From Escherichia coli (lineage in GTDB: Bacteria; Pseudomonadota; Gammaproteobacteria; Enterobacterales; Enterobacteriaceae): 4,057 nt of DNA. The notes under the pieces were generated by a model that made no database searches, was not told the origin of the DNA, and saw only the letters and a program-made list of their open reading frames with translations. Numbering within the stretch: the first letter of the stretch is position 1; every line of letters starts with the position of its first letter. Below are positions 1,290 through 2,480 of this stretch, piece by piece. Location of the stretch: the NCBI RefSeq assembly GCF_003334305.1, contig NZ_QOWS01000051.1. One strand, given 5' to 3'. Both the position numbers and the translations under genes were made by a program.

Positions 1290-2480
1290 AGGGCAAGATT
1301 ACGAAAGCCCGCTCCCCGCAAGGACTGACGCCAGATAGTTCCTGTCCATGGCTGCTTTTCGCATCTTACGTCTTAACCCTGCCTTGAATACCTTATCATT
1401 CGTCAAAATATTAATAGCAATGTGCCGTATCCCTGAAAATAATTCCGCTGCATTTCCTCTTCTTATTCTGCAGTCGTCTTCATTCATTACCACGTCCAGG
1501 CGCCAGTGCAGCTTATTCTCCACGTGCCAGTGATTTCGGATCGCTGTGGCGAACTTCTCTGCAGTTAAATCAGCAGAGCTGATATAATATCTGACCGTCA
1601 TTTCGGGTTCTTTCTTTTGTTCTGCTATTATGGACCGAAAGGAGACTGCCACGCATAATTTCTTCAGCCCTTTCCATTCAAACGTGAAATCAATAAGTTC
1701 ATCAGGGGCATCGCAAACAATATGAAGACGGATTTCTTCTCTGCCGTGACTCTTTTCACTGATTGCGTAACTGTCATGCTCTGGATTATTTAATTCTTTC
1801 AGCGGAAATTTTTCCTCAAAGGCTTTATTTAGCCGCCCCTGGTTTCCTTTTACCGCGAATAAATAATCACCTCCCTGTTTTTGTATCTTCTCTGCAATAT
1901 CTTTCTGGCAACCCATCGCATCAGTTGTGATGATTTTTCCTTTAATATCCAGCATGTTAAGAAGTTCTGGGATAGCTGTAATCTCATTAGATTTCTCATC
2001 CGTCTTGATCTGTCCGATGACCAGACTGTGCATTGTTGAGAACGCACTAATGACATGAATCGCTCCCCTGCGGCGACTCTTGTCATAAGAGTGCCGGAGC
2101 GTTTTTCCATCAATTGCAATGACGTCTTTATCATCTGAAGAATGGCAGTCACGCATCCAGTTAATAAAGCACTCGTGAAATTTTGCAGGACTGATACAGG
2201 ATACAACTCTGGCAATGATATCGTGAACAGGAATACCATTTTCAAAATCACCATATCACTTCAAAACATCGGGATGTGTTTCCCCAAAATCCTCTATATC
2301 TTCCCAGCCTTCTGCACCAGAAATAACGGCACAAATAGTCAACAGTAGAATATCCGATAATTTATGTTCCACTTTCCAGGCTTGTCTGTAATCGGGGATA
2401 ACAGAAATATGTTCCATCAATTTTTTAAGTTCCATTTTGTTCTCCTTAATTATGTAAGGAGTATTTGATCATGTATAAGC
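1290..2480 (-). mobile_element. ISAs1-family insertion sequence (H-rpt-like); boundaries approximate, terminal inverted repeats not resolved
   Basis: Contains the transposase reading frame 1299..2435 and its ribosome-binding site. The outer limits are set by the terminator at 2550-2573 and by the SD/ATG of the downstream gene at 1267-1285. I could not find convincing terminal inverted repeats or target-site duplications by eye. Confidence 0.5.
1299..2435 (-). pseudogene. ISAs1-family transposase (H-repeat-associated protein), full length 378 codons, interrupted by an in-frame TGA at codon 60 (2256-2258)
   Basis: ATG at 2433-2435 preceded by AAGGAGA; translation [59 protein letters not shown][37 protein letters not shown] then continues in the same frame as the ORF-track product [18 protein letters not shown]...[12 protein letters not shown] (1299..2156). 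The sequence matches the E. coli H-repeat (ISAs1 family) transposases as I recall them. Confidence 0.85.

Follow-up and report, generated by a model that had tools for sequence, protein, structure and literature searches.

A defective ISEc1 copy at an Escherichia coli Rhs locus carries a nonsense allele that is probably old and exchanged among H-repeat copies

Insertion sequences (IS) of the ISAs1 family, such as ISAs1 of Aeromonas, IS1358 of Vibrio cholerae and the H-repeat of Salmonella, contain one long DDE open reading frame (ORF), are approximately 1.2-1.3 kb in length and end in short terminal inverted repeats (TIRs). These three have been described as intact members. The H-repeat (H-rpt) itself was reportedly first described by Zhao et al. 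in 1993. In E. coli K-12, the copies lie at the distal ends of Rhs elements. The closest described relative of the copy reported here is ISEc1 H-rptB, whose ORF-H is yhhI, beside rhsB; both are the same 1.29-kb element, with 98.3% identity over 1266 nt.

In this study, we analysed a stretch of 4,057 nucleotides from E. coli (contig NZ_QOWS01000051.1 of RefSeq assembly GCF_003334305.1; hereafter the window). A sequence-only reading of this DNA had proposed that an H-repeat transposase gene was knocked out by a single in-frame TGA, that the mutation was recent because everything else looked intact, and that the element was probably immobile. On the minus strand, the first feature is an Rhs core gene, of which the 3' end and the variable tip extend from the window end down to 2984. 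They are followed by a small ORF in the immunity-gene position that overlaps the ORF of the rhs tip (3006-2614), the H-repeat/ISEc1 of 1293 bp (2580-1288), a decayed orphan toxin/immunity pair (1296-357) and the start only of a second rhs gene (approximately 283 down to 1). The ORF at 2984-3943 matches the last 163 positions of the NF041261 RHS_core profile (E=2.2e-91) as well as TIGR03696 (E=8.4e-24) and contains YTDPLGL. The arrangement is that of an Rhs element, in which a core ending in PxxxxDPxGL is followed by a variable tip and an immunity gene. The tip (2984-3466, minus) matches the catalytic domain of YkuD L,D-transpeptidases (E=3.4e-5), including an HGGG...GCTR motif, which suggests a peptidoglycan-targeting toxin. 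The 130-aa ORF at 2614-3006 (minus) has a lipoprotein-like start (LILVIGC), matching the expectation for a periplasmic immunity protein.

At orthologous loci, Hcp-VgrG-Rhs lies upstream of the element, linking it to a type VI secretion system (T6SS). The complete genomes closest to the window are those of strains A7, TUM1887 and DETEC-E601, all 99.8% identical. The A7-type gene order is Hcp, VgrG, Rhs core protein, small protein and ISAs1 transposase pseudogene on the left, and hypothetical protein, DUF3969, second rhs (frameshifted), ydcD and two more H-rpt pseudogenes on the right; yafV adjoins the locus in IAI1 and UTI89. The orphan ORF just past the IS (697-1296, minus), the orthologs of which are annotated as hypothetical protein WP_000960005, gave no match in a Pfam scan. 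It contains a lone in-frame TAG at 817-819, then 39 further codons (SKVYKDGFDASGRKVSIHYFESQSGRVFNVKVKPYWSNL) to the TAA at 697-699; the ATG of the following small gene is directly adjacent to this TAA. Since its 5' end runs into the right end of the IS, its N-terminus was probably removed by the IS or by recombination. The DUF3969 gene (357-697, minus) is the probable immunity partner of the orphan toxin. It appears to be split by a frameshift at a T7 run (611-617), with MRIDYSISNEHAEKFISLLVLGVLYSIEKK... in one frame and ...AISIDEAEGF...EIILVK in another, and RefSeq annotates its 64-aa distal part only. In the 5' end of the second rhs gene, positions 1-152 of the window differ from GE3 and FHI_NMBU_10 by dense substitutions and compensating 7-nt indels, in loci that are otherwise near-identical. 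This pattern suggests that rhs paralogs likewise exchange sequence by gene conversion.

Translation of the minus strand from the ATG at 2435-2433 to the TAA at 1301-1299 gave a frame of 378 codons plus the terminal stop. Exactly one internal stop was present, the TGA at codon 60 (2258-2256, plus-strand 'tca'; ancestral codon CAA, Gln, see below), after ...GETHPDVLK, so that the lone stop noticed earlier was reproduced. The reconstructed protein, with X at the stop, matched the NCBIfam profile NF033564 (ISAs1 family transposase; E=5.5e-124, 413.4 bits, cut-off 70) in an alignment unbroken over residues 29-344 and profile positions 1-314 of 314. Together with the 98.3% identity to yhhI, this match bears out the family assignment. 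In Pfam, residues 8-94 matched DDE_Tnp_1_assoc (PF13808; E=2.3e-31) and residues 102-343 matched DDE_Tnp_1 (PF01609; E=8.6e-31). Because the profile and Pfam matches are strong, the frame is a real gene remnant and not a chance one. Both transposase domains are present and collinear, and the single ORF expected of the family is broken at codon 60, in the middle of the N-terminal DDE_Tnp_1_assoc domain and not at a domain boundary. Intact homologs have neither a natural domain break nor a frame change at codon 60, and the proposal that the gene is knocked out at this codon holds.

The ORF-H transposase pseudogene thus delimited by translation, profiles and the RefSeq label occupies 1299..2435 (minus). 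A Shine-Dalgarno sequence, AAGGAG, can be read 7 nt upstream of the native ATG. Because ribosomes starting there halt after 59 residues, the window copy cannot make its own transposase. The sole product expected from the native start would be the 59-codon N-terminal remnant in the ORF list (2259..2435, minus; 2256..2435 with the stop included). The mechanical ORF list also holds a 285-aa ORF from the internal Met95 (1299..2156, minus), which spans the DDE catalytic domain. No Shine-Dalgarno sequence was seen upstream of 2156, and expression of this ORF is therefore unlikely. The lesion is already known, as the RefSeq pipeline calls the orthologous gene a pseudogene ('ISAs1 family transposase, internal stop'). 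For annotation, the locus is a recognisable IS pseudogene, and neither the 285-aa nor the 59-aa ORF should be listed as a gene.

The ends of the element were set by aligning eight copies with different flanks, which placed the complete H-repeat/ISEc1 at 1288..2580 (minus, 1293 bp); an inverted-repeat tool run on the window did not report the terminal repeats. In the orientation of the ORF, the left end at 2580 reads CAGGAAAAGC... and the right end at 1288 reads ...AATCTTGCCCTG, the element beginning with CAGG and closing with ...CCCTG. Members of the family are approximately 1.3 kb long and bounded by short TIRs. The right TIR (1288..1302, minus; reverse complement CAGGGCAAGATTACG) is the same in the alignment as in intact copies. 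The left end departs from the consensus CAGGGAAAGATCA by a G-to-A substitution at position 5 and a 1-nt insertion, and in the multi-copy alignment the first 26 nt (2555..2580, minus) are unlike those of all K-12-type copies. A perfect 16-nt palindrome, AGCATCACGTGATGCT, lies within this variant end at 2558-2573 (minus), followed by the T-run GATTTTTTGC. On its upstream side, the distance to the immunity-like ORF is 41 nt, and ORF-H lies downstream of it. Only this left-end variant has the palindrome, which is absent from K-12-type copies. The palindrome and T-run look like an intrinsic terminator, a candidate that could end the rhs operon transcript and insulate the IS.

No direct repeat was found around the window element (2581... 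/ ...1287), which thus has no target-site duplication, while the C10 ydcC copy carries one of 10 bp (GCCCGACATG). The missing duplication fits recombination between copies after insertion. Given this and the altered left end, the window copy is most likely a fixed fossil, and it is plausible that its autonomous movement has been lost, as the sequence-only reading had supposed. According to a genome paper, transposition of H-rpt has not been observed (PMC3032704).

The ancestral state of codon 60 was obtained from intact homologs, a check that had been proposed together with the claim of a recent mutation. The codon is CAA in all intact copies examined (K-12 yhhI, K-12 ydcC, C10 ydcC and strain 2/0 ydcC). 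When one genome per species was scanned with a pattern that left codon 60 free, 15 H-rpt matches were obtained, from E. albertii, E. whittamii, Escherichia sp. MOD1-EC7003, Citrobacter, Pseudocitrobacter and a few contaminated metagenome-assembled genomes (MAGs); 14 of the 15 have CAA and the other has CAC. Since both the intact and the cross-species copies carry CAA, the TGA lies two transitions from its ancestor, not one, by way of either CAA-TAA-TGA or CAA-CGA-TGA. Possible intermediates occur on other flanking haplotypes (TAA in 7 genomes, CGA in 1). The choice between the two routes from these intermediates was dropped because they are too rare and differently linked. An exact 23-mer with the TGA had no match in 100,044 species-representative genomes, and on this thin sample the allele looks confined to E. 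coli.

The distribution of the allele within the species was surveyed with a 41-mer that has the TGA at its centre, so that no 28-nt megablast seed can avoid the stop codon. The 41-mer matched 1420 of 5426 complete E. coli genomes (26%), exactly in 1054 of them, and the lineages include O157:H7, O26, O111 and the UTI89 and NU14 group. The context survey, which comprises 13 fetched loci among 1627 places and so describes contexts and not per-locus proportions, revealed at least five junction contexts. These are the window type at the yafV-side Rhs locus (A7, WY517-2, GE3 and NCTC9088); the ydcC locus beside pptA, with an IS1 fragment on the left (O157:H7 and O26:H11); a hybrid whose left side is that of the O157/O26 ydcC copy and whose right side is that of the window (E62, BMH-17-0027 and LR-51); the rhsB locus, that is, yhhI itself (O111:H8 and AH65); and a B2 variant with an internally deleted copy (UTI89 and FEX669). 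In the ydcC-type and hybrid contexts, the IS1 fragment is located approximately 270 bp outside the left end of the H-rpt that carries the TGA (6587-6685 in locus extracts L007 and L008, 4074-4172 in L016, and 4087-4185 in L017 and L018). In AH65, a longer IS1 transposase ORF (L009, 6174-6551) breaks the 5' region of the H-rpt. The neighbouring tautomerase gene pptA has an annotated internal stop in O157:H7 (L007, 4696-4923) as well as in O26:H11 (L016, 2237-2464).

A 404-nt query spanning the TGA and the unique left junction of the window matched along its entire length, with an identity of at least 99.8%, in all of the at least 60 genomes listed. There were 69 genomes in the band of at least 99%, and more than 50 independent complete genomes carry the 404 nt without any difference. 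The sources at this junction comprise pigs, cattle, dogs, a wolf, humans, seawater and food from several continents. The same TGA at the same junction in at least 60 assemblies effectively excludes both a sequencing error and a private recent mutation.

The stop does not stand alone in the window, where L54P, F56V and T73I accompany it. The window insertion is present in FHI_NMBU_10 with identical junctions and an intact transposase (WP_033882866.1) that has L54, F56, Q60 and T73. Compared with this intact allele, the window shows a block of ten single-nucleotide polymorphisms (SNPs) at 2218..2402 (minus), which includes both TGA bases, P54, V56 and I73, and other blocks of differences, inside the IS. 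The core of this tract, codons 54-73, is common to TGA copies at other loci. The TGA occurs on three backgrounds at codons 54 and 56 (L54-F56, P54-F56 and P54-V56), and L54 and P54 were each found both with Q60 and with the stop. V56 was seen only with the TGA among the sampled copies.

More than half of the sampled TGA copies have decayed further, in keeping with a pseudogene. Additional lesions were present in 8 of 14 (the 13 fetched and the window): the same 1-nt insertion in E62, BMH-17-0027, LR-51 and NCTC9088; a 40-bp expansion of the octamer AGCAGAAC with frameshifts in O157; an internal deletion with scrambled N-terminal frames in UTI89 and FEX669; and an IS1 insertion in AH65. In the ydcC copy of O157:H7 PV15-279 (L007, approximately 5350-5400; approximately position 954 of the element), five extra AGCAGAAC units lie in the transposase gene, a slippage-type lesion that is absent from other copies. 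The remaining 318 codons are open in 6 of the 14, the window among them. This could reflect some constraint, yet a divergence of 1-2% predicts few extra stops. Between the window and intact copies, codons 1-94 have 1 synonymous to 7 non-synonymous differences and codons 95-378 have 9 to 3 (Fisher p=0.02 versus yhhI and 0.0002 versus the 2/0 copy). The non-synonymous excess in codons 1-94 indicates that the stop-bearing 5' segment drifted without constraint. Codons 95-378 bear the signature of evolution in working copies, as would be expected if they had been refreshed by conversion.

Different lesions have killed other H-rpt copies in the same Rhs locus, which lie at 9050-10186 and 767-1903 of the IAI1 extract (L004) and at 844-1970 of L001. 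The IAI1 copy at the right junction of the window has W44* together with Q60, and the distal IAI1 copy has Q18*. The three single-stop lesions, at codons 18, 44 and 60, all fall in the first 60 codons, which could be chance in so small a sample. A second H-rpt type in the same locus, 67% identical and full of stops, surfaced only with a blastn word size of 11. No HPDVLK-like stretch was noticed in its single-frame translation, so that nothing points to it as the source of the tract.

Several lines of evidence point to exchange between copies. At rhsB, as at the window locus, both states occur with the same junctions: yhhI is intact with CAA in K-12 and carries the TGA in O111. These two sequences agree fully in 400 nt of flank upstream and on through the first 308 nt of the IS. 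Thereafter, 24 differences are found in the IS, beginning with the five SNPs of the tract, and 4 in the 400-nt downstream flank. At the window locus, the differences inside and outside the IS numbered 7 and 0 for A7, 16 and 1 for WY517-2, 18 and 1 for NCTC9088, and 28 and 3 for FHI_NMBU_10, the last count excluding the paralogous rhs 5' end at positions 1-290. The clustering within the IS is significant in all four ortholog comparisons (binomial p from 3e-4 to 1e-10). Faster, neutral change of a pseudogene could add to this excess but leaves the shared blocks unexplained, such as the seven SNPs at 1830-2095 that recur as a block in A7, FHI_NMBU_10 and NCTC9088. Copies with a common left flank also agree in the left part of the IS, and those with a common right flank agree in its right part, as seen for IAI1 versus the window, for E62 versus O157 and for NCTC9088, which has the frameshift of E62. 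Since the parts of the IS follow their flanks, the crossovers lie inside the element. Every TGA context examined has at least one junction in common with a CAA copy. No TGA context is thus a new insertion site, which favours recombination or gene conversion over transposition for the spread of the allele. Conversion at the window locus may have brought in the TGA, or it may have restored the intact allele in FHI_NMBU_10. Such exchange is the expected behaviour of repeats that are roughly 96-98% identical. No description of this conversion pattern among H-rpt copies was found in the literature searched, and H-rpt is not discussed in Jackson et al. 2009.

These data allow the possible origins of the stop to be weighed. 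A recent nonsense mutation, private to the window copy of an otherwise intact and recently active element, was the explanation of the sequence-only reading. It has in its favour that the 378 codons of this copy hold one lesion only and that the remaining ORF is 98% identical to intact yhhI. However, the TGA is two substitutions from CAA within a block of linked variants, and the N-terminal part is rich in non-synonymous changes. The 28-nt seed over the TGA recurs in 1420 of 5426 genomes, and the identical stop-bearing 41-mer in at least 1054, at several Rhs loci and in several lineages; at the window junction it is carried by at least 60 assemblies, whose hosts and countries of origin are unrelated. 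Three flanking haplotypes carry it, V56 occurring only with the TGA among the sampled copies, and TGA and CAA alleles coexist at the window insertion. The claim of recency therefore fails, and we consider a private mutation extremely unlikely. An error of sequencing or assembly in the window has a negligible probability. It is a general possibility, and the window as a whole has no fully identical counterpart among the database assemblies, but the 404 nt over the TGA and left junction are identical in more than 50 independent complete genomes.

The stop might instead be functional, either through UGA readthrough or recoding (for example as selenocysteine) that would yield full-length transposase in small amounts, or through selection for the 59-aa product, with or without that from Met95, for instance as an inhibitor of transposition. 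UGA is the leakiest stop codon in E. coli, the allele is present in 26% of genomes, and in 6 of 14 sampled copies both the 59-codon ORF and the downstream 318 codons are open. On the other hand, the base after the stop is U, and UGAU is not known to be a leaky context. No SECIS or other Rfam match was found near the stop in a scan of the window (E<=1), which gave only a meaningless CrcZ fragment at 2744-2806, and the recoding idea was rejected. In addition, 8 of the 14 copies are frameshifted, deleted or interrupted on either side of the TGA, and the damage reaches the 59-aa frame itself in AH65, where IS1 cuts it, and in the B2 copies, where it is scrambled. Non-synonymous changes are concentrated right around the TGA, and Met95 lacks a visible Shine-Dalgarno sequence. 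A function for the stop is thus very improbable. A defective copy might also have spread by transposition in trans, through the intact ISEc1 transposase and not by recombination or conversion. Intact ISEc1 genes are present alongside in many genomes, the 10-bp target-site duplication at one ydcC copy indicates that the family does transpose, and the allele is found at several loci. Nevertheless, the TGA contexts examined all share one or both junctions with a CAA copy and so represent no new sites, the shared tract is short within elements that are otherwise mosaic, and the window copy has no target-site duplication. We regard this route as distinctly improbable.

The explanation we favour, and hold to be very probably correct, is that the window contains a non-autonomous fossil ISEc1 copy with an old TGA allele that has been exchanged among H-rpt copies by homologous recombination. 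The element (1288-2580) lies between the toxin and immunity end of a T6SS-linked Rhs gene and a downstream orphan Rhs module. Its translation would halt after 59 residues within DDE_Tnp_1_assoc, yielding no DDE catalytic domain. The TGA would be part of a short, old haplotype block circulating among H-rpt copies at several Rhs loci. We infer that this block was spread, and locally erased, by recombination or gene conversion between paralogs that are 96-98% identical, with crossovers inside the IS. Because conversion can spread old lesions and refresh the remainder, a lone stop in an otherwise clean multi-copy element does not imply recency. The stop-bearing tract may also serve as a handy natural marker for recombination between the Rhs loci of E. 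coli.

A further reading sees the H-repeat as a fixed homology patch at the distal edge of Rhs cassettes. A crossover in the H-repeat, coupled to one in the conserved rhs core, would exchange entire toxin-immunity modules among loci and strains, and the stop-bearing tract would be carried along or copied by conversion. The frequency of the TGA (26%, at least five contexts) would then reflect putative selection for immobilised anchors or for a dominant-negative 59-aa fragment, and not drift. The recombination-anchor part of this reading is compatible with the comparisons of IAI1, E62, O157 and NCTC9088, in which the upstream module changes together with the left half of the IS and the downstream module together with the right half. 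Taken as a whole, including the selection, it seems unlikely.

Judged by its profile match, architecture, size and one matching end, the window copy is a member of the ISAs1 family by descent and a pseudogene. Unlike the intact members of the family, it does not encode a transposase. It shares with K-12 yhhI the 378-codon ORF, the right end and the position just downstream of an Rhs toxin/immunity pair. However, yhhI is intact, with CAA at codon 60, L54, F56 and T73, whereas the window has TGA, P54, V56 and I73, and its left end differs in the first 26 nt. The other K-12 copies, ybfL, ybfQ/ybfD and yncI, which are linked to RhsC and RhsE, are likewise decayed H-rpt copies at distal Rhs ends, but their lesions are truncations and other stops. 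The four K-12 rhsC/rhsE copies that retain the segment, as well as yhhI, all have CAA at codon 60, unlike the window. The same TGA at the same codon is found in H-rpt pseudogenes annotated by RefSeq, namely AOY58_RS04480 in A7 and ydcC in O157:H7 and O26:H11. None of these differs in kind from the window copy, although the O157 ydcC pseudogene has added frameshifts and the 40-bp octamer expansion; the A7 locus is 99.8% identical to the window, its 7 differences all falling in the IS.
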